DNA from: an uncultured Nocardioidaceae bacterium
GTDB taxonomy: Bacteria; Actinomycetota; Actinomycetes; Propionibacteriales; Nocardioidaceae
DNA length: 64,000 bases
Assembly: GCA_964571285.1 (NCBI GenBank)
Contig: CAZNCE010000001.1
Span: 47,255-111,254 of the forward strand
Reading direction: 5' to 3'
This document shows, one piece after another, positions 12,125 to 29,734 of the stretch (position 1 is the first letter of the stretch; the number at the start of each line of letters is the position of its first letter). Position numbers and translations under genes: made by a program. The notes under the pieces were generated by a model that saw nothing but the letters and a program-made list of their open reading frames with translations, was not told the origin of the DNA and did not search any database.

Positions 12125-12129
12125 CGCAG

Positions 12130-13746: not shown

Positions 13747-13833
13747 TCTTCCACACTACCCCGGCCCGGTGTGCGCGAAAGGGCCTTCCGTCGGTACTTC
13801 CCCGTGCTGAAAGGCACTTTCGAAGCGGTGGCG

Positions 13834-14568
13834 TCAGCTCCGGGCGCGCAGCCCGATCTTCACCAGCGTGGCATGCAACCGGACGGACAGCGCCGCCAAC
13901 TCGGCCACGGTCTGGGCGGCCCGGCCGCGCGCGGACGCGTCGCGCTGGCGCTCCAGCGGTGCCACCACCTGCTCGACCAGGCCGACCTCGCGGTCCGCCG
14001 CGGCCTTGAACGACCGCAGGTGCCGGGGCTCCAGTCCGAACGCCGCCATCTCCGCGACCGTCCGCGCCACCATCAGCGCGTCCACGTCGTAGTGCTCCGA
14101 GCCCGCCCGCCGCCGCAGCAGCCCGTAGGTCTCCAGCTGCTCCAGCAGCTCCTCGTCGGCTCCGGCGGCCTCCATCAGCTCGGTACGAGACAGCCGGACG
14201 TCATCCCGGCCGGACCGGAAGCTCTCTGCGTCGGGCATGCCATCGCCGCTGACCACAACCAGCGGCACCCGTGGACCGCCACCGGGCAGCTCCGGCGGCT
14301 CCAGGCCGCGCGACATCGCGTCCAGGTGGTCCTTGATCACCTTCAGCGGGAGGTAGTGGTCGCGCTGGGCCACCAGCACATAGCGCAGCCGTTCCACATC
14401 GCCGTGCGAGAACTTGCGGTAGCCCGCGGGCGTGCGCTCGGGCTCGACCAGCCCCTCGGTCTCCAGGAACCGGATCTTGGAGATCGTGACGTCCGGGAAC
14501 TCCGGACGCAACTGGTTCAGCACCTCCCCGATGCTCAGGCGCGCGTGCAGCGGGGCGGGCGAGGTCAC
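13834..14568 (-). CDS. MerR-family transcriptional regulator (Rv1828-like)
   Basis: N-terminal HTH LSIGEVLNQLRPEFPDVTISKIRFLETEGLVEPERTPAGYRKFSHGDVERLRYVL. Conserved position next to garA. Confidence 0.85.
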   Translation of the reverse strand: MTSPAPLHARLSIGEVLNQLRPEFPDVTISKIRFLETEGLVEPERTPAGYRKFSHGDVERLRYVLVAQRDHYLPLKVIKDHLDAMSRGLEPPELPGGGPRVPLVVVSGDGMPDAESFRSGRDDVRLSRTELMEAAGADEELLEQLETYGLLRRRAGSEHYDVDALMVARTVAEMAAFGLEPRHLRSFKAAADREVGLVEQVVAPLERQRDASARGRAAQTVAELAALSVRLHATLVKIGLRARS

Positions 14569-14575
14569 CGGGCAG

Positions 14576-15118
14576 TCACCTCACGGCACCGCCGAGACCG
14601 CCACCTCCAGCGGCGCCCACGCCCTGCTGGCTGGCGAAGTAGACCAGCCGGAACTTGCCGATCTGCACCTCGTCGCCTCCGGACAGCGTGACCTCGTCGA
14701 TCCGGTCGCGGTTCACGTACGTGCCGTTGAGGCTGCCGACGTCGCTCACCGTGTAGCCCTCGCCGGTGCGGCGGAAGACCGCATGCCGGCGCGACACGGT
14801 GACGTCGTCGAGGAAGATGTCGCTGTCGGGGTGGCGCCCGGCCGACACCTCGTCGGTGTCCAGCAGGAAGCGGGACCCGGCGCTGGGGCCGCGCTGCACC
14901 ACCAGCAGGGCGCTGCCGGCCGGCAGCGCGTCCACCGCGGCAGCGTCATCGGCGCTCAGCGCGGTCTCGTGCGCGTCGGCGTCGGTCGGCGGCGAGATCG
15001 TGGCCGTCGACTCGACCGGGCGCTCGGTGGCCTTCGGCTGCTCGATGCGGTGACCGCATTGGCTGCAGAACCGAGCGGTGTCGGGATTCTCGTGCCCGCA
15101 CTCGATGCAGAACGGCAT
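14576..15118 (-). CDS. garA: FHA-domain regulator, GarA/OdhI orthologue with an N-terminal zinc-ribbon
   Basis: FHA core GSALLVVQRGPSAGSRFLLD...SAGRHPDSDIFLDDVTVSRRHAVFR...VGSLNGTYVNRD...GDEVQIGKFRLVY closely matches remembered GarA. N-terminus MPFCIECGHENPDTARFCSQCGH. Start trimmed from 15235 to ATG 15118. Confidence 0.85.
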   Translation of the reverse strand: MPFCIECGHENPDTARFCSQCGHRIEQPKATERPVESTATISPPTDADAHETALSADDAAAVDALPAGSALLVVQRGPSAGSRFLLDTDEVSAGRHPDSDIFLDDVTVSRRHAVFRRTGEGYTVSDVGSLNGTYVNRDRIDEVTLSGGDEVQIGKFRLVYFASQQGVGAAGGGGLGGAVR

Positions 15119-15201
15119 CTGGACTCTCCACTTCCCCGCGGCGGTGCTCGACGCGACCGCCAGACCCTGAAGCCTTACTGGAGGGTGACAGTTGAGCTGC
15201 C

Positions 15202-15231
15202 AACCTATGCCGACGAAACCTACCCGGTCAA
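15202..15231 (-). promoter_or_regulatory. Candidate promoter for garA
   Basis: Minus strand TTGACC (15231-15226), an 18-nt spacer, then TAGGTT (15207-15202). Confidence 0.35.
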
Positions 15232-15295
15232 TCAAGCCCAGTCGGGACCGCCCCGACCAGATCCGGCCCCACTCAGCCGGCCCTGACCGACCGGT

Positions 15296-15676
15296 TCAGG
15301 AGGCGTCGATCTGCGCCTGGTACGCGGCCGCGTCCAGCAGGTCCCCCAGGCCGTCGGAGTCCGCCAGCCGGATCTCGAACAGCCAGCCCTCACCGTAGGG
15401 GTCGGAGTTGATCAGGTCCGGGGTCCCGTCCAGGGTCTCGTTCCGGGTCGCGATGGTGCCGGTGGCGGGCGCGAACAGGTCGGAGACGCTCTTGGTGGAC
15501 TCCAGCTCGCCGACGGCGTTGCCGGCGGTGACCTCGGCTCCGACGTCCGGTAGCTGCACGTACACGATGTCGCCGAGCGCGTCCTGCGCGAAGTCGGTGA
15601 TGCCGACCCGAACGGTGTCGCCGTCTCGGCGGACCCATTCGTGGTCGGCGGTGTACTTCAGGTCCTCGGGCACCAT
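15296..15676 (-). CDS. gcvH: Glycine cleavage system H protein
   Basis: 126 aa. Lipoyl-lysine motif GELESTKSVSDL. Confidence 0.95.
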   Translation of the reverse strand: MVPEDLKYTADHEWVRRDGDTVRVGITDFAQDALGDIVYVQLPDVGAEVTAGNAVGELESTKSVSDLFAPATGTIATRNETLDGTPDLINSDPYGEGWLFEIRLADSDGLGDLLDAAAYQAQIDAS

Positions 15677-15690
15677 TGCGTCTCCTGTCC

Positions 15691-16458
15691 TCAGTCGGCG
15701 GGCCGAGCGTACTCAGGGGCTCGCAGCGGCTGCAACGAGGTCACCCGGATGTCGTCGCTCTGCCGGATCAGGACCGTCCCACGCAGCTGCTGCACCTCGT
15801 CTTGCAGACCCCCGGGGAACGTCATCGCGGTGCGCAGGTCCTCCGGCGGACCGATGACGTCGATCACGTAGGGCGCCTGGAGTTTGGCGTCGCCCACCTG
15901 CAGGCCGTTGCCGGTGTCCTCGATCGGGGTGTCGGCCACCACGCGGGCGGTGTTGTTGATCTCGATCGCCTCCGCTCCGGCGTTGCGCATCTCCTGCAGC
16001 GCGTTGAGCATGGTGGTGGTCGTGAGCTCCTCGTACGGGTCGGAGACGGTCACGACAATGCCGGGCCCGGTCGCCGGTACGGTGCCGGCGAGAATGCTGA
16101 GGGTCTCGATCTGCTCCTTGGCCTGCTCCACCGCCGTCGTCCTGCTCTCGCTCGCGCTGCGCAGGGCGTCCCGCCGGTCCTGCAGGGTCTGGATCTGCTC
16201 GCCGACGCGGCGATTGCTCTGCTCCAGGGTGGCCAGCAGGGTGACCAGGTCCTCCCGGCGGGTGTTGGCGAAGTCGCCTTCCTCGTTCAGCGTCTTGACC
16301 TGCAAGACGGCGAGGAAGGCCACCAGCGCCAGCAGCGCGGCGACAACCAGTTGGGCGCGGACCGACAGCCACCGGCGCCGGCGCGCGCGCTTGAGGGCGC
16401 GACCCGGGTCCGAGCTGCCGGGGTCGGTCTGCTCCCCCGCTGAGTGCTGGTCAGACAT
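15691..16458 (-). CDS. DUF881-domain membrane protein (Rv1825-like)
   Basis: N-terminal TM helix, coiled-coil region, then a DUF881-like C-terminus (GPGIVVTVSD...NALQEMRNAGAEAIEINN). Conserved synteny. Confidence 0.75.
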   Translation of the reverse strand: MSDQHSAGEQTDPGSSDPGRALKRARRRRWLSVRAQLVVAALLALVAFLAVLQVKTLNEEGDFANTRREDLVTLLATLEQSNRRVGEQIQTLQDRRDALRSASESRTTAVEQAKEQIETLSILAGTVPATGPGIVVTVSDPYEELTTTTMLNALQEMRNAGAEAIEINNTARVVADTPIEDTGNGLQVGDAKLQAPYVIDVIGPPEDLRTAMTFPGGLQDEVQQLRGTVLIRQSDDIRVTSLQPLRAPEYARPAD

Positions 16459-16497
16459 GGTGGTGGCTGGCGCTCCGTGTGCTCGTCATCTGGTCGG

Positions 16498-16830
16498 TCA
16501 GGCGTGCAGCACGTGCCGGCGGATGGCCGCCACGTTGGAGAAGATCCGGATGCCGAGGACGACGATCACCGCAGTCGACAGCTGGTTTCCCACGCCCAGC
16601 TGGTCCCCGACATAGACGATCAGGCCGGCGATCACCACGTTGGAGAAGAACGAGACCGTGAACACCTTGTCGTCGAAGATGCCGTCCAGGTAGGCGCGGA
16701 GGCCGCCGAACACCGCGTCCAGCGCGGCGACCACCGCGATCGGCAGGTAGGGCTGGAGGCCCAGCGGCACCTGTGGCTCGAAGAACACCCCGACCAGGAC
16801 CCCGATCACCAGGCCGAGGACCGGGATCAC
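16498..16830 (-). CDS. Small integral membrane protein (Rv1824-like, DUF1290-type)
   Basis: Start trimmed to GTG 16830, which forms a GTGA overlap with the stop of the upstream DUF881 gene. 110 aa, three hydrophobic helices (VIPVLGLVIGVLVGVFF...). Confidence 0.7.
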   Translation of the reverse strand: MIPVLGLVIGVLVGVFFEPQVPLGLQPYLPIAVVAALDAVFGGLRAYLDGIFDDKVFTVSFFSNVVIAGLIVYVGDQLGVGNQLSTAVIVVLGIRIFSNVAAIRRHVLHA

Positions 16831-17699
16831 TCCGGCTCCGGGGAGCCGGCGTGGGCGAACCGGAGCGTCCTCGCCGCCCGACCCGGGACCGTGATCGAGT
16901 CCCGCGCCGTGATGTCCATCCTCACGCCGAAGTTGTTCTGAAAGTCGATCCATGCCTGCCCGGCTGCGGTGTCGTAGAAGTTGGCTTGCAGTGTGTCGGG
17001 ATCCCCGATCACCGTGACGACGTACGGTCGCCGCAAGGATACGCCGTTGACCGTGATGGCACTGCTGGCGCTCCGGATCGAGGTCAACGTGATGACCCGC
17101 TGGCTGTTCAGCGCGATCGCCTCCGCGCCGGCCTGCCAGAGCCCATTCACCAGCACCTGCAGGTCGCTGTCGAGGACTTTGCCGCGGTGGCCGAGCGACT
17201 CGTCCTGGGAGTTGTCCACGGTGATCTCGATACCCGGGCCCCTGGCCGGCACCGCCCCGGTGACCAGCTCCAGCCGGGCCAGCTGGCGGCTGTAGCCCTC
17301 CGACAGCTCGGCGAGTTGCCGGCCGGACGCCTCGAGCCCGGCCACCTCGGTGCCCAGTTCGGTCACGGTCTGCCGCATCTCGTCGACCTGGTCGCGCTGC
17401 TCCACGATCTGGGAGATCAGCTGCGAGCGCTCCTCCGCCAGCTCCGGCTGGCGCTGCTCGTTCTGCACCGCCGAGATGCCGAGCATCGCGCCGAACACAG
17501 CCAGCGTGGCCACCACGCCGACGATCGCGATGCCGCGGCCGCGGCGCGGCCCGCGCCCGCCCGTCGGGCCGCCCCGCCGGCGTGCGGCGGTGGCGTAGTC
17601 GGCGTCGACGCTGTTCGCCAGTAGGTCGGTGAGCAGCGACATCGACTCATCGACGCGCCGCGGCGGGCGCGTCGTGGAGTGGCCGGTCCGCGCTCCCAT
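16827..17699 (-). CDS. DUF881-domain membrane protein (Rv1823-like)
   Basis: Paralogous architecture to 15691..16458 (TM helix, coiled coil, GPGIEITVDN...NGLWQAGAEAIALNSQRV). Confidence 0.75.
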   Translation of the reverse strand: MGARTGHSTTRPPRRVDESMSLLTDLLANSVDADYATAARRRGGPTGGRGPRRGRGIAIVGVVATLAVFGAMLGISAVQNEQRQPELAEERSQLISQIVEQRDQVDEMRQTVTELGTEVAGLEASGRQLAELSEGYSRQLARLELVTGAVPARGPGIEITVDNSQDESLGHRGKVLDSDLQVLVNGLWQAGAEAIALNSQRVITLTSIRSASSAITVNGVSLRRPYVVTVIGDPDTLQANFYDTAAGQAWIDFQNNFGVRMDITARDSITVPGRAARTLRFAHAGSPEPE

Positions 17700-17700
17700 G

Positions 17701-18369
17701 TCAGGTCCGCGGCCGGCTCAGCAGCTTGTACACCTGCCAGGCGTACAAGAACCCGCCCCACCAGTACAGCCCGGTCCCCCAGATAGCGAACGCCCAGCCG
17801 AACACGGTGGCCAGCGTGGGCACCGTGCCGGTCCCTTCGCCGAGCAGCAACAGCGGGAACGCGTACAGCAGGTTGAAGGTGGCGGCCTTGCCGAGGAAGT
17901 GCACCGGCAGCCGGTTGTAGCCGCGGGTGCGCAGGAACGGCACCAGCGAGAACAAGAACACGTCGCGCAGCGGCAGGATCAACGCCAGCCACCACGGGAT
18001 GATGTCCCGCAGCGCCAGGCCGATCACCACGGCCAGGATGTAGCACCGGTCGGCGATGGGATCCAGGTACTGGCCGACGCGGGTGGTCTGGTTGAACCGT
18101 CGGGCAAGCTTGCCGTCGAGGTAGTCGGTGATCCCGGACGCGGCCAACACCACCAGCGCCCAGCCGTCTGCGCGCGGCCCCAGCACCAGCCACAGGAAGA
18201 GGGGTACGCCCGCCAGCCGCGCCGCGCTCAGCAGGTTGGGGATGGTGAGCACCCGGTCGGTGACCACACGGTCGTCGCCGCGTTGCACCACCGCGTGAGT
18301 CCTCCCCGAAGCCGGCACCGACGAGTGTGAGGGTAGTACGTCGCGGGGTGGTTCAGCGCGTCGGTTCAC
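17701..18369 (-). CDS. pgsA: CDP-alcohol phosphatidyltransferase (PgsA2-type)
   Basis: Motif [27 protein letters not shown] (D-G-x2-A-R...G-x3-D-x3-D). Multi-TM protein. GTGA overlap with the upstream ADH stop. Confidence 0.9.
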
Positions 18370-19382
18370 CGCGGGACCACTCCAAGATCGAGCACCGCCA
18401 CCCCGGTCAGCCGGCCGGAGCGGAGGTCACCGAGTGCCCGGTCCGCCGATTCGAACGGGTACGTCGTCGCGTGCACCGCCACCGGGAGCCGCGCGGCCAG
18501 GCGCAGCAACTGTTCACCGTCGGCCCGGGTGTTGGACGTGACGCTGGTGAGGGTCCGCTCGCGGAACAGGTGGCGGTCGTAGTCCAGCACCGGCACGTCG
18601 GTGAGGTAGATGCCGGCCACGGCGAGCGTCCCACCAGGCCCGAGTGCGGCCAGCGCCGGCGGCACCAGATCGCCCACCGGCGCGAACAGGATCGCTGAGT
18701 CCAACGGCACGGGAGGCGCCTGGTACGCGTCCTGGGCGGACGCCGCGCCGAGCGCACAGGCCAGTTGCTGCGCCTCCGGGCCGCGGGTCATGACGTGGAC
18801 CTCGGCGCCCTGGGCAAGGGCGATCTGTGCGGTCAGGTGCGCGCTGGCGCCGAACCCGTAGATGCCCAGTCGTCCGCCGGGCGGCAGCTGCGCGCGACGC
18901 AGCGCCCGGTAGCCGATGATCCCGGCGCACAGCAGCGGTGCCGCCATGACGTCGTCACCGGCATCCGGCAGCCGGTAGGCGTACGCCTCAGGCACGGTCG
19001 CGTACTCCGCGAATCCGCCGTCGGCGTCCCATCCGGTGTACTCAGACGCCGGGCACAGGTTCTCGGACCCGGTTCGGCACCAGGTGCAATGGCCGCAGCT
19101 GCGGCGCAGCCACGCCACGCCGACCCGGTCGCCCACGTCGAAGCGCGAGGCGTTCACCCCGCGCTCGACCACCCGGCCGACGATCTCGTGGCCGGGCACC
19201 CGGCGTGGGGCCTTGGCCGGGAGCTCACCGAGGGCCAGGTGCAGGTCGGTCCGGCAGACCCCACAGGCACTGACCTGCACGAGCATCTCGTCGGGTGCGG
19301 GTGTGGGCACCGGCCGGTCCGCGAGCCGCAGCAGCGGCCCGTCGGGCAGCCCGGTGACCTCCCAGGCCCTCATCGTGCGCAC
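18366..19382 (-). CDS. Zinc-dependent alcohol dehydrogenase (MDR family)
   Basis: [18 protein letters not shown], structural-zinc loop [15 protein letters not shown], and NAD fold [10 protein letters not shown]. Confidence 0.9.
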
Positions 19383-20294: not shown

Positions 20295-20461
20295 AGCGGT
20301 TTCCTTCCTGCTCGGCGGTGGTCTTGACACTGTGCCCAGCAGCCTCTGGGCTGAATCGTGTGGATTGTCACGATCGTCGCGCCGCGGCGCGGCGATGAGT
20401 CTTCGTCCGGGAGATGGTCTGCACTCCACCCGCCGTTCCCAACCCATTGGACAGGTGCCGC

Positions 20462-21082
20462 ATGCAGCCGGACGAGCACAGCTTCGCGCAACAGACCGTC
20501 TATCCCGACCTGAGCGAGGCCACCGCAGTCGTGTCCGACGTCGTACGGGCGGTGCGCGACGAGCACCTGGCTGTACAGACGCCGTGCGCCGGCTGGTCGG
20601 TGGCGACGGTGCTTGACCACCTCGCGGGGCTCAGCATCGCGTTCACCGACGCCGCTCGGGGCGACCTGGAGGCCGGGAACCGGGCGCCGTCGCCGGACGC
20701 GACGCACCTGGACCCGCGGTTCCGCAGCTCGACCCCGGTTGCGCTCGCCGCGCTGGCGGCCGCCTGGCGTGACCCGTCGGCGTGGTCCGGCATGACCCGG
20801 GCCGGTGGTGTCGACCTGCCCGGCGAGGTCGCCGGCCTGGTAGCCCTGAACGAGGTCGTGGTGCACGGCTGGGATCTGGCCGCGGCCAGCGGGCAGACCT
20901 ACCAGCCGCCGGTGGCGGCGGTCGAAGCGGCGCTGCCGTTCGTCACGGCCAGCGTCCAGGAGAACCCGGAGGGCACGCCCGGCCTGTTCCAGGCTCCCCT
21001 GCTGGTACCCGACGGTGCCCGCCCGCTGGAACGCCTCCTGCGGCTCACCGGCCGGGACCCCGGATGGCGCCCCGGCCCCTGA
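20462..21082 (+). CDS. DinB/mycothiol-dependent maleylpyruvate-isomerase-like metal-binding protein (TIGR03086-type)
   Basis: LAVQTPCAGWSVATVLDHLAG and NEVVVHGWDLA are typical of the family. Start at ATG 20462 (MQPDEH). Confidence 0.7.
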   Translation: MQPDEHSFAQQTVYPDLSEATAVVSDVVRAVRDEHLAVQTPCAGWSVATVLDHLAGLSIAFTDAARGDLEAGNRAPSPDATHLDPRFRSSTPVALAALAAAWRDPSAWSGMTRAGGVDLPGEVAGLVALNEVVVHGWDLAAASGQTYQPPVAAVEAALPFVTASVQENPEGTPGLFQAPLLVPDGARPLERLLRLTGRDPGWRPGP

Positions 21083-21177
21083 CCGATCCCTCGAGTTCCT
21101 GCATTCTCCTGCGGGGCGCCCACCACCGTGGATATTCTGAGCGGCCAATCGAGCGGTTGTCGGGGTGGCGAAGCGCC

Positions 21178-22911
21178 ATGGGCAGCAGGCCTGAGCACGT
21201 AGCGAATGTGGTGGTCGGGTCCGGGTTCGGCGGTTCCGTGACCGCGTTCCGGCTGGCGCAGGCGGGGCAGGACGTCGTCCTGCTCGAACGCGGGAAGCCC
21301 TACCCGCCGGGCTCGTTCGCCCGCACCCCCACCCAGATGAGCCGCAACTTCTGGGACCCGAGCGAAGGCCTGCAGGGGTTGTTCGACATCTGGTCGTTCC
21401 GCGGCATCGAGTCCGTCGTCTCCAGCGGCCTGGGCGGCGGCTCCCTGATCTACGCCAACGTCTTGCTGCGCAAGGACGAGAACTGGTTCGTCACCGAGAA
21501 CACCGATCCCGGCGGCGCCCGGCCGTGGCCGGTCAGCCGGGCCGACCTCGAGCCGCACTACGACGCGGTCGAGCAGATGATCGGCGTGCAACGGTTCCCT
21601 GCGGGTCAGCCGGGATACGAGTCGTCGGCGAAGACCACGGCCTTCACGGCGGCGGCGGATCGCCTGGGCCTGGAGTGGCAGCTGCCTCCGCTGGCGGTCA
21701 GCTTCAGCCCCAACGGCGGCCCCGCTGCACGCGGGCTGCCGATCCCGGACCCTGCCTACGGCAACCTGCACGGCTTGCCTCGGCGCACCTGCATGATGAC
21801 CGGGGCCTGTGACCTCGGCTGCAACAACGGCGCGAAGAACACCCTCGATCACACCTACCTGTCGGCGGCCGCGTTCCACGGTGCTGACCTGCGGACCCGC
21901 TGCGAGGTGCGCTCGTTCGCGCCGCTGCCCTCGGGTGGCTGGCTGGTGCGCTACGTCCAGCACCTTCCGGAGCACGAGGGATCGCCCACCGCCACCCGCC
22001 GGCTGCCGCTGCACGAGATCACCTGCGACCGGCTGCTGCTGGCCGCCGGCACACTGGGCAGCACCTTCCTGCTGCTCGCCAACCGGTCCATGCTGCCCGC
22101 GGCCAGCCCGATGCTGGGCCACCGATTCAGCGGCAACGGGGACCTGTTGGGCTTCGTCCTGGACGCGTACGAGGCCGGACTGGACGGCAGCCTCGGGGCG
22201 TCTTCCGCGCCGGTGATCACCAGCGCGATCAGGGTCGCGGACGCGCTCGACGGCGGGTCGGGCCGCGGCTTCTACATCGAGGACGCCGGCTATCCCGGGT
22301 TCGTCGACTGGCTGGTCGAGGCCGGAGATCTCGGCCGGCAGGTTCGCCGCTGGGCGGAGTTCGCCGTGGAGCGGATCCGGGCCCGGCTGATCGGGGCGCC
22401 GCGCAGCCAGATCAGCACCGCGATCGCGCGGGCCCTGGGACCGGGCCGCGCGTCGGGCGGTGCGATGCCGCTGCTGGGCATGGGCCGCGACCAACCCGAC
22501 GGCGTGATGCGGCTGCGGTCGGGCTACCTGGACGTGGACTGGACGACCGAGACGAGCAAGGACTTCTTCGACGAGGTGCGCGGCACGATGGCCGAACTGG
22601 CCGAGGCCATGGACGGCACGTTCGTCGGCAACCCGATGGACTGGATGCAGCGCGTGATCACCGTGCATCCGCTGGGCGGGGTGCCGATGGGACACGACCG
22701 TACCGCCGGGGTCGTGGACGGCCACGGAGAGATGTTCGGGCATCCCGGGCTCTACGTGGTGGATGGCTCGGTGATGCCCGGCCCGGTCGGCGCGAACCCC
22801 AGCCTCACCATCGCCGCGTTCGCCGACCGAGCGGCCGAGCACATCATCGAGTCGTCCGGCCCCCGTACCCGCAGTGGAACCACCAGGCAGACCGGGAGAG
22901 CGCCGTCATGA
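21178..22911 (+). CDS. FAD-dependent GMC oxidoreductase, cholesterol-oxidase-like
   Basis: Track ORF 20782..22911, trimmed to ATG 21178. VVVGSGFGGSVTAFRLAQAGQDVVLLERG (FAD fold), CMMTGACDLGCNNGAKNTLDHTYL, and C-terminus HPLGGVPMG...YVVDGSVMPGPVGANPSLTIAA. Confidence 0.85.
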   Translation: MGSRPEHVANVVVGSGFGGSVTAFRLAQAGQDVVLLERGKPYPPGSFARTPTQMSRNFWDPSEGLQGLFDIWSFRGIESVVSSGLGGGSLIYANVLLRKDENWFVTENTDPGGARPWPVSRADLEPHYDAVEQMIGVQRFPAGQPGYESSAKTTAFTAAADRLGLEWQLPPLAVSFSPNGGPAARGLPIPDPAYGNLHGLPRRTCMMTGACDLGCNNGAKNTLDHTYLSAAAFHGADLRTRCEVRSFAPLPSGGWLVRYVQHLPEHEGSPTATRRLPLHEITCDRLLLAAGTLGSTFLLLANRSMLPAASPMLGHRFSGNGDLLGFVLDAYEAGLDGSLGASSAPVITSAIRVADALDGGSGRGFYIEDAGYPGFVDWLVEAGDLGRQVRRWAEFAVERIRARLIGAPRSQISTAIARALGPGRASGGAMPLLGMGRDQPDGVMRLRSGYLDVDWTTETSKDFFDEVRGTMAELAEAMDGTFVGNPMDWMQRVITVHPLGGVPMGHDRTAGVVDGHGEMFGHPGLYVVDGSVMPGPVGANPSLTIAAFADRAAEHIIESSGPRTRSGTTRQTGRAPS

Positions 22912-23564
22912 GCAGCCGCACCGCGTCGAGTGGCGCCACCGCACCGGTCGGAGTGCGGTTCACCGAGACCATGTCCGGCTTCGTCACGCTCGGCGAGACC
23001 GACCCGGAGCGGGGCTATCGCCGGGGCAAGGCTGACGGGACGGCGCTGTCGTTCCGGCTCACCATCAGCACCGACGACGTGGCCGCGTTCCTGGCCGACC
23101 CCGAGCACGCCGAGGTCGCGGAGGGGCGGATCGACTGCGAGGTGCTCGGCGGTCGCCGACCGGTCCAGTCCGGCCGGTTCCAGCTGTTCGTCGCCGAGCC
23201 AGCGGGTGCCCGCAGCATGCGCTACCGGCTCACGTTCGCCGACTCCGCGGGAAACGACCTCACCCTGGTCGGCCGCAAGGACGTGCGCAACGACCGCGGG
23301 CTGGACGCGTGGGCCGACACCACGACGCTGTTCACGCGGATCCTGGTGGGCCACGTCGACGAGGATGCCGACGCCGACGCACAGGTGACCGCGGCCGGCA
23401 TCCTGCGCATCTCGGTACCCGCCTTCGCCCGGCAGCTGACCACGTTCCGCGCCGACGGCCCCTCGGTGCCGGCCCGTGTATCAGGCCTGTGGTCGTTCGG
23501 CTCCTTCTTCACAACGCAGTTGTGGCAGGTATACGGCCCACGACGAAGGGGTGGCACCGGATGA
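22908..23564 (+). CDS. Hypothetical protein (218 aa), translationally coupled on both sides
   Basis: ATGA overlaps at 22908-22911 and 23561-23564. High GC3. I recognise no catalytic motif. The alternating pattern (FRLTISTDD, RYRLTFAD, LTLVGRKDV, LFTRILVG) suggests a beta-rich fold. Confidence 0.6.
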   Translation: MSSRTASSGATAPVGVRFTETMSGFVTLGETDPERGYRRGKADGTALSFRLTISTDDVAAFLADPEHAEVAEGRIDCEVLGGRRPVQSGRFQLFVAEPAGARSMRYRLTFADSAGNDLTLVGRKDVRNDRGLDAWADTTTLFTRILVGHVDEDADADAQVTAAGILRISVPAFARQLTTFRADGPSVPARVSGLWSFGSFFTTQLWQVYGPRRRGGTG

Positions 23565-25411
23565 GCGTCGAGCCGGCCGCCATCCCTGCCGCCCGGCAGG
23601 CTCCCGCTCCCGCGGCACCGCTCAGCCGGCCGGTGTCGAGCGCCGACGACCCGGCCACCACCTTCGTCCCGCAGGCGGCGACTCGATGGCTGCGCCCCGG
23701 ACTCCTCCTGCGCTCGGCCGGGGAGGTGGTGATCAGCAAGATCCTCGGCGAGTACAACGACAAGCGCGAGGTGATGGCTGCGCTCCCGTCGGACCCGCCG
23801 CTGGACCTGCACACCGACCACCAGGACGTCTGGTTCGACTTCGTCTCCGACACCGGGGACGGGTTCGACGCGACGTACGCGGTGGCGGAGCTGCTGGCCA
23901 GGCCGAGCCTCAGCCCACGCACTGCCGACGGCTCGGAACTCGAGCTGCCGGCCGGCCGGCTGCTGGTGATGGGCGGGGACCAGTGCTATCCGTCCGCCTC
24001 GGTCGACGGGTACGAGAACCGGCTGATCGGCCCGTACCGGGCGGCCTTGCCGCACGCCCCGGAGACCGGTCAGCGGCACCTGCTGGCCGTACCCGGCAAC
24101 CACGACTGGTACGACGGGCTGACGGCGTTCATGCGCACCTTCTGCCAAGGACGCGACTTCGGCGGCTGGCTGACCGGCCAGTCCCGCAGCTACTTCACTG
24201 CCCGGCTGCCCGGACGCTGGTGGCTGTGGGCGGTCGACATCCAGTTCGACACCTACATCGACGACGTGCAACTGCGCTATCTGCGTGCGCGCGCCGAGCA
24301 GCTGCAACCGGGCGACGCGGTGATCCTGTGCTCGGCCAAGCCGAGCTGGGTGGCCGCCCAGGAACCCGAGCATGCCGAGGCGTACAGCACCCTCGACTTC
24401 CTCGACCGCACCCTGATCCGGCCGACCGGCGCGCACCTGCGCGTGTGCCTGAGCGGCGACCTGCACCACTACGCCCGGTACGAGGCGGCCGACGGGGCGC
24501 AGAAGGTGACCGCGGGCGGGGGCGGCGCCTACTTGTCAGCGACCCATCACCTGCCACGGGCGGTGACCGTGCCGCCCCCGGCATCGAGGGCACGCGGCCG
24601 CACCGAGCCGGTTCGGCACGATCTGAGAGCCAGCTACCCCGCACCGGCCGAGTCTCGTCGCGCCGGACTCGGGGTGCTCGGCCTGCCGTGGACCACCAAG
24701 TCCTTCACGCTGCTCATGGGCGGTGTTCAGACGCTTGTCTTCCTCGCGATCGGGTGGGCGTTCAGCCCGCAGACGCTGTCGCTGGGCCACCGGCTGGTCG
24801 CCACGGCGGAGCGCCTCGCCGACGCCACGCCCGGCCGGCTGGCCGCCACCTTCCTGGACAGCCTCGGGAGCCTCACGCTGGCGCTGCTGGTGGTCGGCGC
24901 GGCGGTTGCGTTCACCAAGCAGTCCCGCAGCATCAAGGGCTGGCTCGTCGGGTCCGTCCACGGCCTGCTGCAGCTCACCCTGGCGGTGCTGGTCACCTAC
25001 GCTGCCGTGTCCCTCACCGCGGGGTTGCCGAGCGTGGCGATGCTGGTCGCGACGCTGGCCCTGGTATTCGTGGTGGGCGGCATCGTGGCCACCGAGCTGG
25101 TCGCGGTCTATCTGGTGCTCGCCGACCGGGTCGGGCTGAACAGCAACGAGCTGTTCGCCGCGCAGGCGATCGGCGACTTCAAGAACTTCCTGCGGCTGCA
25201 GGTGGATGCCACCGGCGAGCTGGTGATCCATCCGATCGGGGTGCGTCGGGTGCCTCGTCACTGGCGCGTGGCGCCGTCCGACAGCGCCGGTCCTCGGTTC
25301 GTCCCCGACGGCACCCATGCCCTGCGGGTGGGCGGCACGGAAACCGTCGAGTGCCAACTGATCGAGGACCCGGTCCGGGTCAGCCCCGACCCGCGGCCCG
25401 TGACCGCGTGA
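23561..25411 (+). CDS. Calcineurin-like metallophosphoesterase fused to a C-terminal polytopic membrane domain
   Basis: Track ORF 23309..25411, trimmed to ATG 23561. Motifs DFVSDTGDG, GGDQCYPSA, VPGNHDWYDG and LSGDLHHYARY. Then about 4-5 hydrophobic helices (FTLLMGGVQTLVFLAIGWAF, LTLALLVVGAAVAF, LLQLTLAVLVTYAAVSL, MLVATLALVFVVGGIVATELVAVYLVLA). Confidence 0.8.
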   Translation: MSVEPAAIPAARQAPAPAAPLSRPVSSADDPATTFVPQAATRWLRPGLLLRSAGEVVISKILGEYNDKREVMAALPSDPPLDLHTDHQDVWFDFVSDTGDGFDATYAVAELLARPSLSPRTADGSELELPAGRLLVMGGDQCYPSASVDGYENRLIGPYRAALPHAPETGQRHLLAVPGNHDWYDGLTAFMRTFCQGRDFGGWLTGQSRSYFTARLPGRWWLWAVDIQFDTYIDDVQLRYLRARAEQLQPGDAVILCSAKPSWVAAQEPEHAEAYSTLDFLDRTLIRPTGAHLRVCLSGDLHHYARYEAADGAQKVTAGGGGAYLSATHHLPRAVTVPPPASRARGRTEPVRHDLRASYPAPAESRRAGLGVLGLPWTTKSFTLLMGGVQTLVFLAIGWAFSPQTLSLGHRLVATAERLADATPGRLAATFLDSLGSLTLALLVVGAAVAFTKQSRSIKGWLVGSVHGLLQLTLAVLVTYAAVSLTAGLPSVAMLVATLALVFVVGGIVATELVAVYLVLADRVGLNSNELFAAQAIGDFKNFLRLQVDATGELVIHPIGVRRVPRHWRVAPSDSAGPRFVPDGTHALRVGGTETVECQLIEDPVRVSPDPRPVTA

Positions 25412-25423
25412 GAGGACGAACCG

Positions 25424-26455
25424 ATGGCTGCGCCGGCTCTGCATGAGCGAACCGTGCCGTTCACGGCCGGTGACGGGATGCCCCTGCACCTGGTGAACGT
25501 CCGTGGCCAGCATCCGCCCTCCAAGCCGCCGGTCATCCTGGTGCACGGGGCCGGCGTCCGTGGCAACATCTTCCGGGCGCCGGTGCGGCGGACGGTGGTG
25601 GACGCCCTCGTCGACGAGGGGCACGACGTGTGGCTGGAGAACTGGCGGGCCTCGATCGACGTGCCCGCTAACCAGTGGACTCTCGACCAGGCGGCGCTGT
25701 ACGACCATCCGGCCGCCGTCCGGGCGGTCCTCGCCGACACCGGTGCCACCGAGGCGAAGGCGATCATCCACTGCCAGGGATCGACCTCGTTCGCGATGTC
25801 GGCAGCCGCCGGACTGGTGCCACAGGTGAGCACGATCATCAGCAACGCCGTCTCGTTCCACCCGGTGGTGCCCTGGTGGTCTCGGCTGAAGGCCCGGCTG
25901 TCCGGGCCGATCTCGCAGGTGGTGTCGTACCTGGACCCGGGGGCCGGCGACCGGCCGGAGAACCGGTGGACGCGGGGCATCACGGTGGCCGTCCGGGCCA
26001 CCCACCACGAGTGCGGCAATACCGTGTGCAAGCTGGTCAGCTTCACCTATGGAGCCGGCTTCCCGGCGCTGTGGGAGCACCGCAACCTCAACGCCGAGAC
26101 GCACGAGGTGTTCATCCCCCGCGAGTTCGGCAAGGTGCCGCTGAGCTTCTTCCGGCAGATCGCCCGGGCGATCAGCGCCGGGCACCTGGTGGCGTACACC
26201 CGGATGCCTGGCCTGCCGGACGACTACATCGCCCAGCCGGTGCAGACCGAGGCCCGGTTCGTGCTGCTCACCGGGCGGAAGAACAAGTGCTTCCTGCCCC
26301 AGAGCCAGCTGGAGTCGTACCGGTGGCTGGACCAGCAGCGTCCGGGACTACACGGGGTGCACGTGTTCGACGACTACAGCCACCTGGACGTGTTCATGGG
26401 CAAACGGGCGGCCGACGACATCTTCCCGACGGTGCTCGCCGAGCTCGAAGGCTAG
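25424..26455 (+). CDS. Alpha/beta-fold hydrolase with Cys at the nucleophile-elbow position
   Basis: Oxyanion-type VILVHGAG. Elbow AIIHCQGST (Cys117, codon 25772-25774). C-terminal DDYSHLDVFMG (catalytic His region). Confidence 0.75.
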   Translation: MAAPALHERTVPFTAGDGMPLHLVNVRGQHPPSKPPVILVHGAGVRGNIFRAPVRRTVVDALVDEGHDVWLENWRASIDVPANQWTLDQAALYDHPAAVRAVLADTGATEAKAIIHCQGSTSFAMSAAAGLVPQVSTIISNAVSFHPVVPWWSRLKARLSGPISQVVSYLDPGAGDRPENRWTRGITVAVRATHHECGNTVCKLVSFTYGAGFPALWEHRNLNAETHEVFIPREFGKVPLSFFRQIARAISAGHLVAYTRMPGLPDDYIAQPVQTEARFVLLTGRKNKCFLPQSQLESYRWLDQQRPGLHGVHVFDDYSHLDVFMGKRAADDIFPTVLAELEG

Positions 26456-26488
26456 TCTCGGTCACGCGGCCCCCGGGGGGCGCCAGCG

Positions 26489-27046
26489 TCAGGGGCAGTC
26501 GGTCACCACGGTCAGGCCGGTGACGTCCGCCAGGTTCAGCAGCACTCGGCCACCCTCGGTGTCCAGCAACAGCCGACCGCCCTGCGCGCCCAGCACCTGC
26601 CCACACGCGGTGCCGCCGGCCGACGACACCTCGACGAGGCCGGGCCGATCCGAGCTGTCGGCCGGCCACCACGCCGAGCTGGTGGCCACGGCGAGGACGG
26701 CCACGGCGACGTAGGTCAGCACGATGCCGGTGCGCAGCCGGCGGCCGGCGCCCTCGGGCTGCTGCCCCCCGCCGAAGCCGTACACCGGCCAGGCCACCGA
26801 GGCGACCAGCGCGGTGGCCACACAGCTGAGCACCAGCGCGAGCAGGACCAGCAGTCCGGCCACCAACTGAAGCCACCCGGGGCGGCCCCCGGGGTCCCGC
26901 TGCAGCACACCGCACAGGCCGATGAACCCGAGCACCGCGAGCTGCACGCCATGCCAGCCGCGCGCCGAACCCTGCAGCGTGGTCAATCGATCCACGTCAT
27001 CGGTGGCCATCCGGACCACCCCGTCGATCAGCGTAGACCCGTGCAC
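26489..27046 (-). CDS. Hypothetical membrane protein (3 TM helices plus ~55-aa C-terminal domain with 2 Cys)
   Basis: High GC3 and hydrophobic helices (VQLAVLGFIGLCGVL, LQLVAGLLVLLALVLSCVATALVASVAW, IVLTYVAVAVLAVATSSAWW). No recognisable family. Confidence 0.5.
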   Translation of the reverse strand: MHGSTLIDGVVRMATDDVDRLTTLQGSARGWHGVQLAVLGFIGLCGVLQRDPGGRPGWLQLVAGLLVLLALVLSCVATALVASVAWPVYGFGGGQQPEGAGRRLRTGIVLTYVAVAVLAVATSSAWWPADSSDRPGLVEVSSAGGTACGQVLGAQGGRLLLDTEGGRVLLNLADVTGLTVVTDCP

Positions 27047-27181
27047 CGGACATCGGAATCCGCTCTTCGGGCACCACGGGGCGGATCGGCCGATTCCCGG
27101 ACGATCACCGTTGACAGCCCCCAGATCCCCTGCTCCTATGACGATCGCCGGTCGGTCACATTCGGGGATTGGGGAATAACT

Positions 27182-29734
27182 ATGCGCAAGGCCTTGTTGG
27201 TCACCGCGGCGGCGCTGACGCTGCCGCTTCTCGCGCCGGTAGCCAGCGCACCGGGATCACCACCAGCGACACAGCCGGGATCGGGTCCGGCCCCTGCGGC
27301 GGCCTGCGACCCGCTGACCCCGGCGGAGTACGCCGGCCGGATCCCCACCGGCGAGGACGTACTCGGCTTCGCGCTCGGCGAGCAGGAGGTGACCGTCGAG
27401 GAGTCCGACACCTACCTACAGGCGGTCGACGATGCCAGCCGGCGAGTGAGCACGGGAGTGCTCGCGGTCTCGCAGGAGGGGCGGCCGCTGCGCTATGCGG
27501 TGGTCGGCCGGCCAGCCGACGTCCGCAAGGCCCAACGGGCAGCCGCGCGCCTCCGCGACCCGGACACCTCCCCCGCCCGGGCCCGCCGGATCGCAGCCAC
27601 CGCACCGGCGATCGCCTGGGTTGCGGGCAACGTACACGGCAACGAGGAGAGCGGGACCGACGCGGCGCTGAAGGTGCTGTACGACCTGGCGGACCGGACC
27701 GACTGCGCGGCCCGGCAGATCCGCGACAACACGGTCACGGTGATCCTGCCGACCCAGAACCCCGACGGTCGGGAGGCGGACACCCGCCGCAACCACTACG
27801 GGTTCGACCTGAACCGGGACTGGTTCGCCCGGACCCAGCCGGAGACCGACGGCAAGCTGGAGGCACTGCGCCAGTACCCGCCGGTGCTGTTCATCGACGA
27901 CCACGAGATGGGGCGCGGTGGGTTCTTCTTCCCGCCGAACGCCGACCCGGTCTACCACGACGTCGCGGACCGGTCGATCGGCTGGATCAACGACCTGTAC
28001 GGCGCCGCCATGGCGGACGTGTTCACCACCTTGGGGCTGCCGTTCTTCAACTATTCGGTCTACGACCTGTTCTACATGGGGTACGGCGATACGGTGCCCA
28101 CGACCGCGTTCCTGGGTGCCGGCATGACCTTCGAGAAGACCGGCAGCGATCCGATCGCGCAGCGCACGTTCGAGCAGTCCACCGCGGTGTGGACGTCACT
28201 GTTCGCGCTCAGCGGCGACAAGGAGTCGGTCCTTCGCGGCTGGGCCGCTTCGCACCGGCAGGCGCTCAAGCAGGGCCGGCGCGGCTTCCTGGAGCCGAAC
28301 CAGGTCTGGGCGCCGGGCAACACCGTGCAGCGGGAGGTTCCGGACGAGAAGGTGCGGCACTACTTCATCGAGCCGCCGGGTCCAGGCAAGGCCGACCAGG
28401 TGGCCGAGGTGGTACGGCGGCTGCAGCGGATGGACGTCGAGGTGTACCGGCTGACCGCGCCGCTGATCGTGCCGGACTACCGGCCGTATGCCGAGACCGC
28501 CCGGCAGCGGACGCTGCCCGTGGGCACCTACTGGATCCCGATGGCCCAGGCGCAGAAGCACTGGGTGCAGGCGATGCTGAACGAGGACACCTACGTCCCG
28601 TTCCCGTACTTCTACGACGTCACGGCTTGGAGCGGGCCGCTGCTGGCCAATGTCGCCGGTGGCCGCTCCGGTGCGGTGCTGGAGCCGGCCGCCGAACCGG
28701 CCCCCGAGGTGGCCGCACCGCAGGCTCCGGGGCTGCCGCCGGGCGGAGCGAGTATCGGCCTGTGGCAACTCGATGACGGCACCGGCGCGACCGAGTCCTC
28801 CGGCTGGATGCGGTGGCTGTTCGACCACAAGTGGCAGATCCCGTTCCGGGAGGTCCGCAGCGACGGGATCGTCGCCGGGGCGCTGGCACCGATCGACGTG
28901 CTGGTGGTGCCCAACGGGGACGCGGAGACCGCCTACGAGGAGCTCGGATCGCAGGGGCAGCGCGAGTTGCGCCAGTGGCTCGCCGACGGCGGCCGCTTCG
29001 TCGGTCTACGTGGCGGGACCGAGCTGGCCGCTTTGCTGCAGCTGACCACGGGCCGGCTCAGCTCCCCCACGTCGGCGATCCCCGGTTCGCTGATCCACGC
29101 CGACGTGGCCCCCGGCCCGCTGGCCGAGGGCGTCGGCACGGACGTGTGGAACTTCTACGAGTACGACAACGTGCTGTGGACCAACTTCCGCCGGGCGGTG
29201 GCCGTCAGCTACCCGGCCGCGGACAGCGAAGACTTCTTCGTGTCCGGGTTCGCCGAGGGCGAGGAGGAGCTCGGCGGCACCGCGGCGGTGCTGGACGAGC
29301 CGTACGCCGACGGCCGGGTGGTCGTGTTCGCCGGGGAGCCCAACTTCCGCGCCTTCACCGGCGGGACGCAGCAGATCCTGTGGAACGCCATGTTCGGCCC
29401 CGACCCCAGCTGGATGCACGCGGCCCGCACGGCGGGTGCCGGGCAGCAGGCGAAGTGGGCGACGGCGCGTGCGGCGGCGGCCGAATCGGTCCGCGGTCTC
29501 ACCGACATGGACGAGAGCCTGGTGCTGACGGTGCGGGCGTCCGCCGCAGGTGCCACCGACCAGGTGCTGGCCGAGTACGGGCTGTCCGCGCAGCCCGAGC
29601 CGATCGGGTCCGGGCAGGTGCGCTACGTGGTGCCGATGCGCACCGCCGACCAGAGCCCGGTGGCGCGCGACCTCAGCGTCGACCTGCGCCAGCAGGTGGG
29701 CGACGGGGTGGTGGCCGCTCGGTTCCCCAACTGA
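27182..29734 (+). CDS. Secreted M14-family zinc carboxypeptidase with a large C-terminal extension
   Basis: Trimmed to ATG 27182: MRKALLVTAAALTLPLLAPVASAPG (signal peptide). GNVHGNEESG (HxxE) and DLNRDW. The C-terminal half contains a DVLVVPNG...GGRFVGLRGG segment resembling class-I glutamine-amidotransferase-like folds. Confidence 0.8.
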   Translation: MRKALLVTAAALTLPLLAPVASAPGSPPATQPGSGPAPAAACDPLTPAEYAGRIPTGEDVLGFALGEQEVTVEESDTYLQAVDDASRRVSTGVLAVSQEGRPLRYAVVGRPADVRKAQRAAARLRDPDTSPARARRIAATAPAIAWVAGNVHGNEESGTDAALKVLYDLADRTDCAARQIRDNTVTVILPTQNPDGREADTRRNHYGFDLNRDWFARTQPETDGKLEALRQYPPVLFIDDHEMGRGGFFFPPNADPVYHDVADRSIGWINDLYGAAMADVFTTLGLPFFNYSVYDLFYMGYGDTVPTTAFLGAGMTFEKTGSDPIAQRTFEQSTAVWTSLFALSGDKESVLRGWAASHRQALKQGRRGFLEPNQVWAPGNTVQREVPDEKVRHYFIEPPGPGKADQVAEVVRRLQRMDVEVYRLTAPLIVPDYRPYAETARQRTLPVGTYWIPMAQAQKHWVQAMLNEDTYVPFPYFYDVTAWSGPLLANVAGGRSGAVLEPAAEPAPEVAAPQAPGLPPGGASIGLWQLDDGTGATESSGWMRWLFDHKWQIPFREVRSDGIVAGALAPIDVLVVPNGDAETAYEELGSQGQRELRQWLADGGRFVGLRGGTELAALLQLTTGRLSSPTSAIPGSLIHADVAPGPLAEGVGTDVWNFYEYDNVLWTNFRRAVAVSYPAADSEDFFVSGFAEGEEELGGTAAVLDEPYADGRVVVFAGEPNFRAFTGGTQQILWNAMFGPDPSWMHAARTAGAGQQAKWATARAAAAESVRGLTDMDESLVLTVRASAAGATDQVLAEYGLSAQPEPIGSGQVRYVVPMRTADQSPVARDLSVDLRQQVGDGVVAARFPN

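Follow-up and report, generated by a model that had tools for sequence, protein, structure and literature searches.

A multi-enzyme, probably lipid-processing operon of known enzyme folds around a proposed, undescribed hub domain in an uncultured Nocardioidaceae bacterium

What brings a flavoenzyme related to cholesterol oxidases, a small protein of no described family, a membrane-anchored metallophosphoesterase, and an alpha/beta hydrolase with a cysteine nucleophile together in one tightly packed gene cluster? The question is raised by positions 21178-26455 of a stretch of 64,000 nucleotides (nt) from an uncultured Nocardioidaceae bacterium (assembly GCA_964571285.1, contig CAZNCE010000001.1, positions 47,255 to 111,254 of the forward strand), which was analyzed as a whole and is referred to below as the window. 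The four genes, here called g1 to g4, form an operon, probably of a lipid-processing kind, in which enzymes with familiar folds are grouped around a putative hub domain that has not been described. Every enzyme can be assigned to an established superfamily, within which it represents a divergent and uncharacterized branch, whereas g2 belongs to nothing described so far. The explanation that we favor, with moderate confidence, is that the products of this single operon constitute a module at the cytoplasmic face of the membrane, which acts on a lipid-like substrate bearing acyl, phosphate, and hydroxyl groups.

The window is approximately 72% G+C, and lists of open reading frames (ORFs) are noisy for that reason; coding frames were called by the GC content of codon positions (GC3) alongside the ORF list. 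All four genes lie on the plus strand: g1 at 21178-22911 (577 amino acids (aa), GC3 0.92), g2 at 22908-23564 (218 aa, 0.89), g3 at 23561-25411 (616 aa, 0.91), and g4 at 25424-26455 (343 aa, 0.92), with competing frames across them having a much lower GC3, and the same lengths, namely 577, 218, 616, and 343 aa, are given by independent gene calls on this sequence in four public metagenome assemblies. Direct reading of the sequence places an ATGA at 22908-22911, where the stop of g1 overlaps the start of g2, a second ATGA at 23561-23564 between g2 and g3, the TGA stop of g3 at 25409-25411, and a spacer of 12 nt (25412-25423) ahead of the ATG of g4 at 25424. Purine-rich, Shine-Dalgarno-like runs are found 7-10 nt 5' of the three internal starts, with GGGAG (22894-22898) preceding g2, GAAGGGG (23545-23551) preceding g3, and GAGGA (25412-25416), inside the g3-g4 spacer, preceding g4. 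An earlier note on this DNA had described four plus-strand genes with two ATGA overlaps and a 12-nt gap, and had quoted diagnostic motifs for g1, g3, and g4; every detail of the former agrees with the sequence and with GC3, and all of the latter are found in the translations.

The evidence that carries the reading of these genes as a functional module comes from the relatives of g2 in other genomes. The best 80 g2 loci were searched with the window proteins, and the 48 of them with at least 5 kb of sequence upstream and at least 6 kb downstream were used for adjacency counts. A GMC enzyme adjoins g2 in 47 of the 48; a g4-type hydrolase is adjacent in 31 and a patatin domain in 14, with an acyl hydrolase of either kind present in 40; a g3-type membrane phosphoesterase is adjacent in 18 and a soluble metallophosphoesterase in 17, with a phosphoesterase of either kind present in 35. 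Both an acyl hydrolase and a phosphoesterase accompany g2 in 28 loci, and only a single locus has neither. Across all 80 loci the common architectures are g1-g2-g4 (18 loci), g1-g2 (12), g1-g2-g3-g4 (10, four of which carry a distant g4 subtype, g4'), and g1-g2-g3 (5). A number of Actinomycetota have the genes in precisely the order g1-g2-g3-g4 (e.g., loci L001, L008, L032, L039, and L075), L001 being the closest relative of the window operon at 64-77% identity, and plasmid pKVP1 of Streptomyces viridifaciens shows the gene order of the window together with 4-nt overlaps; UKZ03266.1 of S. viridifaciens is a natural GMC.g2 fusion.

The same families are also joined within single polypeptides. 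Fusions in the 80 loci were called by stop-free frame analysis, which found g2 free-standing in 27, fused after the GMC enzyme in 23, located after an N-terminal domain of ~300 aa, counted as an extension of more than 250 aa, in 20 (a patatin in all seven that were tested), fused before a g4-type hydrolase in eight, and before a g3-type phosphoesterase in one; the 150 best g2 representatives at 50% identity comprise 93 in which g2 stands alone, 25 patatin-g2, 16 g2-g4, and 16 g1-g2 proteins. On the megaplasmids of Ralstonia solanacearum a GMC enzyme with a C-x2-C-x2-C-x3-C motif, g2, and a hydrolase with the elbow VHCYG form a triple fusion of 1,150 aa, with a metallophosphoesterase encoded two genes downstream. 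A reverse search gave a corresponding picture, since two of three distant g3 homologs lie directly after a GMC.g2 fusion, and at locus L088 such a fusion and the g3 homolog are joined by a 4-nt overlap. Given this conserved adjacency and the fusions found elsewhere, the gene linkage is not accidental. The earlier note had taken the four genes for one unit and had proposed to examine gene neighborhoods across genomes; the families do co-occur widely, and g2 occurs in frame with each of the other three, which bears the proposal out. The constant core of the system is the GMC enzyme with g2, to which a metallophosphoesterase and a Cys-hydrolase are added as accessories that vary.

Several observations illustrate how far the composition of the loci varies. 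Distant GMC paralogs (g1') partner g2 in Blastocatellia, Proteobacteria, and Myxococcales, and L001 carries an extra distant GMC paralog (12556-14112, 35% identity to g1) between its g3 and g4. In ~17-20 loci where the membrane-bound g3 is absent, as in Solirubrobacterales and Ralstonia, a soluble metallophosphoesterase of 395-454 aa is encoded nearby (e.g., L062, 12453-13817, minus strand; L085, 10809-11996); the copy in L062, from the Solirubrobacterales, has the similar motifs GDIYYSG and NGNHDMY. A gene of the acetoacetate decarboxylase (ADC) family (PF06314) directly follows the g4-type hydrolase in 27 loci, often with a 4-nt overlap, L001 (15211-16098) and the S. viridifaciens locus L086 (10531-11460) being among them. 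At L088 (10098-13131) and L089 (8661-11708), both on the minus strand, the distant g4' subtype, whose elbow reads HCLG, forms one transcription unit with two other genes, for a VAO-type flavoprotein (FAD_binding_4, lactone-oxidase/DprE1-like) and for an SRPBCC protein (Polyketide_cyc2); this cluster is convergent to GMC.g2-g3 and would bring another flavoenzyme and a further putative lipid-binding protein into an extended module. The VAO-type neighbor of g4' had suggested an ether-lipid pathway of the alkyl-dihydroxyacetone phosphate synthase kind, an idea that was dropped, as the protein is lactone-oxidase/DprE1-like in its FAD domain and its list of matches lent no support to an AGPS-type enzyme.

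If g2 is what these loci have in common, then what is it? It matches no family in Pfam, NCBIfam, or PADLOC and no PDB entry by sequence, a profile search of PDB sequences having returned only noise. Its AlphaFold2 (AF2) model, with a predicted local distance difference test score (pLDDT) of 90.7, shows a beta barrel of ~10 strands, accompanied by short helices and, at its C-terminus, by one long helix; a Foldseek search of the model against the PDB gave nothing at E<0.001, the best matches being small ligand-binding or catalytic barrels with E of at least 9e-3 and a template-modeling (TM) score of at most 0.3. The strands carry alternating invariant residues (F18/E20/M22; F49/L51/I53; F91/L93/V95; M104/Y106/L108/F110), which is consistent with a hydrophobic interior that contains a few polar residues. 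Weak fold matches to ADC-like barrels had raised the possibility that g2 is a diverged ADC-family protein, which was rejected after hhalign against the ADC-family neighbors gave a probability of 0.1%. An exhaustive profile search (E at most 1e-3) collected ~2,260 clusters of g2 relatives at 50% identity, and at least 577 species-level genomes proved to encode a relative when each species was represented by one genome in a pattern scan, with hosts in the Actinomycetota, Acidobacteriota, Cyanobacteria, Proteobacteria, and Myxococcota, as well as matches in Leptospira and Bacteroidota; the Blastocatellia, the Solirubrobacterales, and Ralstonia are among the hosts of the module. The description of g2 as an orphan in the earlier note therefore does not hold, as the protein belongs to a family of this size that is elsewhere fused to its partner enzymes. 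We infer that g2 is the hub of the system, an adaptor-like domain without a described family. The patatin protein P0121 (759 aa) has two matched g2 stretches, pointing to a tandem duplication of the hub domain.

The core partner of g2 is the GMC flavoenzyme. g1 scores 68.5 bits against GMC_oxred_C (PF05199; cutoff 24.6), with further matches to GMC_oxred_N, DAO, and NAD_binding_8, and its closest solved relatives are the cholesterol oxidases 1coy (E 1e-25) and 1b4v (E 6e-23). The flavin adenine dinucleotide (FAD)-binding motif GSGFGGS (aa 14-20; 21217-21237, plus strand, as are all features of the operon) aligns with the dinucleotide-binding motif of both structures, and His497 within HPLGG (aa 497-501; 22666-22680) and Asn540 within GANPS (22789-22803), the partners of the GMC His/Asn pair, align with their C-terminal YHPLGG and VNP segments, which we take to hold the catalytic His447 and Asn485 of ChoA; DGSVMP is found at aa 529-534. 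The protein reaches only 187.4 bits against the cholesterol oxidase equivalog NF058674, for which the cutoff is 850, and so falls outside that family; its N-terminus has neither a hydrophobic nor an RR leader, and the region that holds Glu361 in ChoA does not align. On these sequence features, g1 is placed in a signal-peptide-less, cholesterol-oxidase-like branch of the GMC family.

A further feature sets this branch apart. The segment CMMTGACDLGCNNGAKN, which begins at aa 205, contains C205-x5-C211-x3-C215 (21790-21822), a candidate 3Fe-4S site whose three cysteines show no variation in an alignment of 76 g1-type sequences, including paralogs at ~30% identity, and which is extended by a fourth Cys to the ferredoxin-type C-x2-C-x2-C-x3-C in 46 of the 76; classical ChoA reads YGNNAGK at this position and has no Cys. 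The 3Fe-4S cluster of the Burkholderia cepacia FAD-dependent glucose dehydrogenase (FAD-GDH, BcGDH) is ligated by Cys212, Cys218, and Cys222, arranged as C-x5-C-x3-C (PMC6719666). Because the Cys triad is invariant and its spacing is identical to that of BcGDH, g1 is probably an FAD/Fe-S dehydrogenase and not an oxidase that uses O2. Of the earlier description of g1 as a cholesterol-oxidase-like GMC protein, the family and the nearest relatives thus stand, whereas the oxidase role probably does not, in view of the equivalog score (187 versus 850 bits) and the Fe-S-type Cys motif.

The identity of g3 becomes apparent at the level of structure. By sequence, it scores 20.3 bits against Metallophos (PF00149), just below the cutoff of 21.5, although 20 of 27 homologs match this family with E down to 3.9e-6, and a profile search against PDB sequences returned only noise and no relative. 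Its AF2 model (pLDDT 84.7, predicted TM score 0.86) matches the purple acid phosphatases 1ute, 1qhw, and 1war in Foldseek with E of 4e-5 to 5e-4 and a probability of 1.00, followed by PhoD at E 2e-3. The catalytic domain (aa ~90-330; 23828-24550) carries purple-acid-phosphatase-type motifs, namely SDTGDG, GGDQCYP, GNHDWYDG, SGDLHHY, and GGGGAY, with residues that are invariant in 27-29 homologs; a check against the purple-acid-phosphatase motif set did not identify VxxH, and the fifth motif reads GDLHHY, not GHxH. Hydropathy and AF2 secondary structure place four to five transmembrane helices at aa ~382-526 (24704-25138), beyond which the protein ends in a conserved beta domain (aa ~540-607). 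The membrane-anchored metallophosphoesterase of the earlier note is thereby confirmed. As neither a signal peptide nor a hydrophobic segment was found at the N-terminus, the catalytic domain is presumed to be cytoplasmic. More than 2,165 homologs of g3 are named only "hypothetical" or "metallophosphoesterase". Some members of the family stand outside the module, since the copy of Prauserella muralis (L087, 7001-8755) is alone, with no GMC or g2 gene nearby; it adjoins lycopene-cyclase, methyltransferase, desaturase-like, and Rieske genes.

The last enzyme, g4, is a Cys-type alpha/beta hydrolase, as had been proposed: it scores 26.3 bits against Abhydrolase_1 (PF00561; cutoff 25.8), which all 30 scanned homologs match as well, and its nucleophile elbow IHCQGS (aa 115-120; 25766-25783) belongs to an H-C-x-G elbow that is invariant in 47 homologs. 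The elbow aligns column for column with the GHSQG of lysosomal acid lipase 6v7n and gastric lipase 1hlg, which places Cys117 on the catalytic Ser. Two further segments, G284-x-x-N287 and Y318-x-H320-x-D322 (26270-26389), are invariant in 30 homologs; the canonical acid slot thus reads G-x-x-N with an invariant Asn, and His320 is presumed from its position to be the catalytic His. The only curated families to which g4 homologs show recurrent similarity are the polyhydroxyalkanoate (PHA) synthases with a Cys nucleophile, with best E-values of 1.8e-6 and 4.6e-7; g4 itself, at 16.5 bits against a cutoff of 622.65 (TIGR01838/TIGR01836), lies far outside them. The acid-lipase N-terminal region PF04083 was matched by one of 30 homologs (E 0.006), and as the nucleophile is a Cys, g4 is not counted among the acid lipases either. 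The predicted cap holds a near-invariant H-x-E-C-x4-C (aa 194-202; 26003-26029), followed by H219 and H227, a Cys/His-rich segment that may be a structural metal site.

How could these four proteins work together? In the explanation that we favor, g2 would serve as a shared docking or substrate-presenting subunit that physically ties the flavoenzyme to the ester-cleaving enzymes of the given lineage, i.e., g4 and g3 here, and a patatin or the soluble metallophosphoesterase elsewhere. g3 would cleave a phosphoester by means of a binuclear metal center of the purple-acid-phosphatase type, g4 would remove or transfer an acyl group by way of a thioester formed with Cys117, and g1 would dehydrogenate a hydroxyl to a carbonyl with FAD, passing the electrons through its probable 3Fe-4S cluster to an acceptor other than O2; the order of these steps is itself only proposed. 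A lipid-like nature of the substrate is suggested by the patatin fusions of g2, by the acid-lipase-like elbow of g4, by the membrane region of g3, and by the cholesterol-oxidase relatives of g1. Lipid esters are the established substrates of patatins and acid lipases, and the closest solved relatives of g1 oxidize a hydrophobic secondary alcohol. The earlier note had pictured the stepwise processing of a membrane lipid or lipid-linked molecule, and for a lipid-like substrate these features give indirect support. No signal peptide or transmembrane segment was found in g1, g2, or g4, and the module appears to operate on the cytoplasmic side of the membrane. A more far-reaching form of this explanation, which we find attractive but rather doubtful, would make g2 a new lipid-binding or lipid-presenting hub domain that assembles a metabolon at the membrane surface. 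There, a Cys-hydrolase or patatin and a purple-acid-phosphatase-like phosphoesterase, as exchangeable partners, would strip the lipid, and a cholesterol-oxidase-like Fe-S flavodehydrogenase would then oxidize the alcohol laid bare and deliver its electrons to the respiratory chain and not to O2.

A number of points weigh against this explanation and have to be set beside it. g3-type and g4-type proteins are found in 18 and 31 of the 48 loci, respectively, so that each is often missing and a strict four-step scheme is not universal. The ADC-family gene that follows g4 in other genomes has no counterpart in the window, and part of the pathway may accordingly be missing or different here. The barrel of g2 has no significant structural neighbor, so that lipid binding is a guess from its strand-wise hydrophobic conservation. 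The alignment of g1 with BcGDH stops at residue 138, and the two Cys sites are accordingly equated by their spacing, their invariance, and their approximate location; the 93-aa Cys segment found no match among solved proteins by direct alignment. No gene for an electron acceptor of g1 is evident in the window, which also encodes no multihaem cytochrome c or hitchhiker subunit. Solirubrobacterales are over-represented among the 80 loci, and the locus counts cannot be treated as independent events in phylogenetic terms, a bias that leaves the fusions and the distribution across phyla unaffected. Finally, literature searches combining the family names found no paper on this gene set. The earlier note had likewise been unable to match it to a characterized pathway, and the curated families, the defense catalogue, and the searched literature all agree in offering none.

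Two further candidates were examined and set aside. An anti-phage defense system was rejected, as PADLOC has no match for g1-g4 or for a patatin-g2 fusion. A c-type cytochrome encoded in Ralstonia was considered as the electron acceptor of g1, a role that found no support, since the protein scores 200 bits (cutoff 150) as a member of the di-haem cytochrome c peroxidases. This protein, which contains a RoxA-like domain, is encoded at L085 8897-10783, between the triple fusion and the metallophosphoesterase.

Could the four genes simply have come to lie together, or serve a different chemistry? ATGA overlaps and short gaps are known in general to be frequent in actinomycetes, and no promoter or terminator could be mapped, so that four unrelated genes brought close by chance in a compact, high-GC genome might be imagined; adjacency that is conserved across several phyla, and fusions of g2 to all three other families, including a triple fusion, make this extremely improbable, and for practical purposes the fusions and the synteny rule it out. 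An entry into sterol or steryl-ester catabolism, with g4 as a cholesteryl-ester hydrolase and g1 as a ChoD-like oxidase converting a 3-beta-hydroxysteroid to the 3-ketone, deserves more thought. The best solved relatives of g1 are cholesterol oxidases, g4 finds its best PDB match in lysosomal acid lipase/cholesteryl ester hydrolase, 6-8 loci have a gene of the 3Beta_HSD family close to g2, g2 homologs are labeled "cholesterol oxidase" by JGI, and the Acinetobacter choxAB enzyme, which lacks a signal peptide and shares the FAD motif, has trace cholesterol oxidase activity of 0.054 U/mg (PMC8409315). Against this, g1 scores 187 bits where the cholesterol oxidase equivalog demands 850, its Fe-S-type Cys motif is absent from ChoA, the lipase matches of g4 in the PDB are weak (E 1e-3), there are no steroid-catabolic genes nearby, all four proteins appear intracellular, and neither the phosphoesterase nor the patatin has a role in the scheme. 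The module is moreover found in Cyanobacteria, Blastocatellia, Solirubrobacterales, and Ralstonia, none of which is known to degrade sterols, and we consider a sterol pathway improbable.

Hydrolysis and oxidation would also fit the mobilization of a 3-hydroxyacyl ester or polyester, such as a PHA-like polymer or a hydroxy-fatty-acid ester, in which the Cys-hydrolase would release a unit, g1 would oxidize it to a beta-keto acid, and the ADC-family protein would decarboxylate the product where it is present. Of 30 g4 homologs, 16 show similarity to class I and 13 to class III PHA synthases, with single matches to PhaZ and PHB_depo_C, which points in this direction, and the oxidation of a secondary alcohol would suit a cholesterol-oxidase-like GMC enzyme; all PHA-family scores are, however, far below cutoff (e.g., 16.5 versus 622 bits), the window has no ADC, PhaC, or phasin gene, the phosphoesterase is left unexplained, and the patatin fusions point to glycerolipids, not polyesters. 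The ADC-family gene directly after g4 in 27 loci, including L001 and S. viridifaciens, hints that the oxidation product may be a beta-keto acid or a reactive carbonyl in the organisms that carry it, and is what keeps this unlikely hypothesis alive. A small-molecule cassette, for a secondary metabolite or signal, or the processing of a polyprenyl-phosphate-linked intermediate, in place of bulk membrane-lipid turnover, is brought to mind by copies on large Streptomyces and Pseudonocardia plasmids, by the ADC-family, lactone-oxidase/DprE1-like FAD, and SRPBCC proteins that accompany some clusters, and by the pairing of a phosphoesterase with an oxidoreductase, which is reminiscent of pathways with phosphorylated intermediates. 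The ADC family includes aldolase-dehydratases. Yet none of the loci showed a core gene of the polyketide synthase, non-ribosomal peptide synthetase, terpene, or AfsA type, so wide a phyletic distribution is atypical of a specialized metabolite, and the DprE1-like similarity is limited to the FAD-binding domain, so that we give this alternative little credence.

The genomic surroundings of the operon agree with its boundaries as they had been drawn, that is, a 95-nt gap upstream and a convergent gene downstream. The intergenic region 5' of g1 (21083-21177) is presumed, from its position alone, to be the promoter and 5' untranslated region of the operon; a scan of 20300-27300 for sigma-70-type promoters and intrinsic terminators, which is uninformative for a high-GC actinomycete, found none, and no Rfam element lies in 20900-27200. 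Upstream, the gene at 20414-21082 (plus strand) encodes a protein of the TIGR03086/MDMPI family (DinB-like, mycothiol-dependent). It was considered and rejected as a member of the module, the window copy having no tblastn match in the 80 g2 loci, and for this reason its position is probably a coincidence; an MDMPI-family gene at L086 11528-12292 abuts the S. viridifaciens cluster too. Downstream, the convergent gene at 26489-27046 (minus strand, GC3 0.91) encodes a membrane protein of 185 aa with two hydrophobic helices and no family match, and is followed at 26951/27182-29734 (plus strand) by a large M14 carboxypeptidase-like protein of 927 aa from the first ATG, or 850 aa in public gene calls. 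Further away, the region 13834-19382 (minus strand), with MerR, an FHA-domain protein, two DUF881 genes, a CDP-alcohol phosphatidyltransferase, and a Zn-dependent alcohol dehydrogenase, is typical of the actinobacterial core chromosome, and no evidence was found of an operon link to the CDP-alcohol phosphatidyltransferase, a phospholipid synthesis gene on the strand opposite to g1-g4. The window also holds a glycine riboswitch aptamer (12195-12300, minus strand; 64.2 bits versus a gathering score of 32) directly 5' of a 973-codon ORF at 9215-12133 (minus strand), presumably a glycine-cleavage gene; a thiamine pyrophosphate (TPP) riboswitch (40498-40615, minus strand; 58.9 versus 54.3 bits) 5' of an ORF at 39440-40528 (minus strand); and a tRNA gene at 49365-49438 (minus strand).

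What makes the module of interest beyond this one genome is the breadth of its distribution, with g2 homologs in at least 577 species-level genomes and ~2,260 protein clusters and the plant pathogen Ralstonia solanacearum among the hosts, and the fact that neither a family model nor a solved structure nor a publication describes it. The repeated fusion of g2 to four enzyme types is a strong guide to function and provides a concrete, testable set of partners, and Ralstonia and Streptomyces are genetically tractable hosts in which they may be studied. Should the Fe-S character of g1 prove true, thousands of "cholesterol oxidase" and "choline dehydrogenase" annotations would be wrong as oxidases. 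Should the membrane-surface metabolon exist, it would offer a physiological role for intracellular ChoD-like "cholesterol oxidases" in bacteria that do not degrade sterols, and a second, cytoplasmic branch of Fe-S GMC dehydrogenases.

How, then, does the module compare with systems that are already known? With ChoA and ChoB (1b4v, 1coy; NF058674) g1 shares the GMC fold, GxGxxG, and the C-terminal HPLGG and ..NP.. segments, but it differs from them in having no signal peptide, a substrate-binding domain that does not align, and an invariant Cys cluster in place of YGNNAGK, and in being always partnered with or fused to g2. Mycobacterium tuberculosis ChoD (Rv3409c) probably has, like g1, a Cys-rich segment before GAKN. 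The signal-peptide-less ChoD-like proteins, to which ChoD and Acinetobacter choxAB (PMC8409315) belong, compared here by their description only, resemble g1 in their length of 556-578 aa, the lack of a signal peptide, and the sequence GSGFGGSV, whereas they are not reported with g2, g3, or g4 partners and have only trace activity on sterols; the "ChoD" of S. lavendulae (PMC6694107) was rejected as a relevant precedent, being a classical ChoA-type enzyme with a Tat signal from a different operon. BcGDH alpha (6a2u) and fructose dehydrogenase (7w2j) have the GMC scaffold in common with g1, their N-terminal 130 residues align with it at E ~1e-11, and the identical C-x5-C-x3-C spacing of BcGDH suggests an equivalent loop; they are periplasmic sugar dehydrogenases, whereas g1 appears to be cytoplasmic, its cluster is a prediction, and most of its homologs have the four-Cys ferredoxin-type motif.

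Among the hydrolytic partners, patatin-like phospholipases (PF01734) hold the place of g4 beside g2 in many genomes, fused in frame; there is none in the window, and the likeness is an analogy of role, not homology to the window genes. g4 itself aligns with the acid lipases (6v7n, 1hlg) in the alpha/beta-hydrolase fold, the HG oxyanion motif, and the GHSQG elbow, and has a Cys nucleophile and a weak profile similarity in common with PHA synthases, but it departs from both in its combination of a Cys for the acid-lipase Ser, an Asn in the acid slot, and a Cys/His-rich cap, at E ~1e-3. g3, for its part, finds its best fold matches in the purple acid phosphatases and PhoD (1ute, 1qhw, 1war, and 2yeq), with which it shares GDxG, GDxxY, and GNHD at 12-15% identity; it adds to this scaffold a membrane domain and a C-terminal beta domain, has GDxHHY where they have GHxH, and appears to be intracellular.

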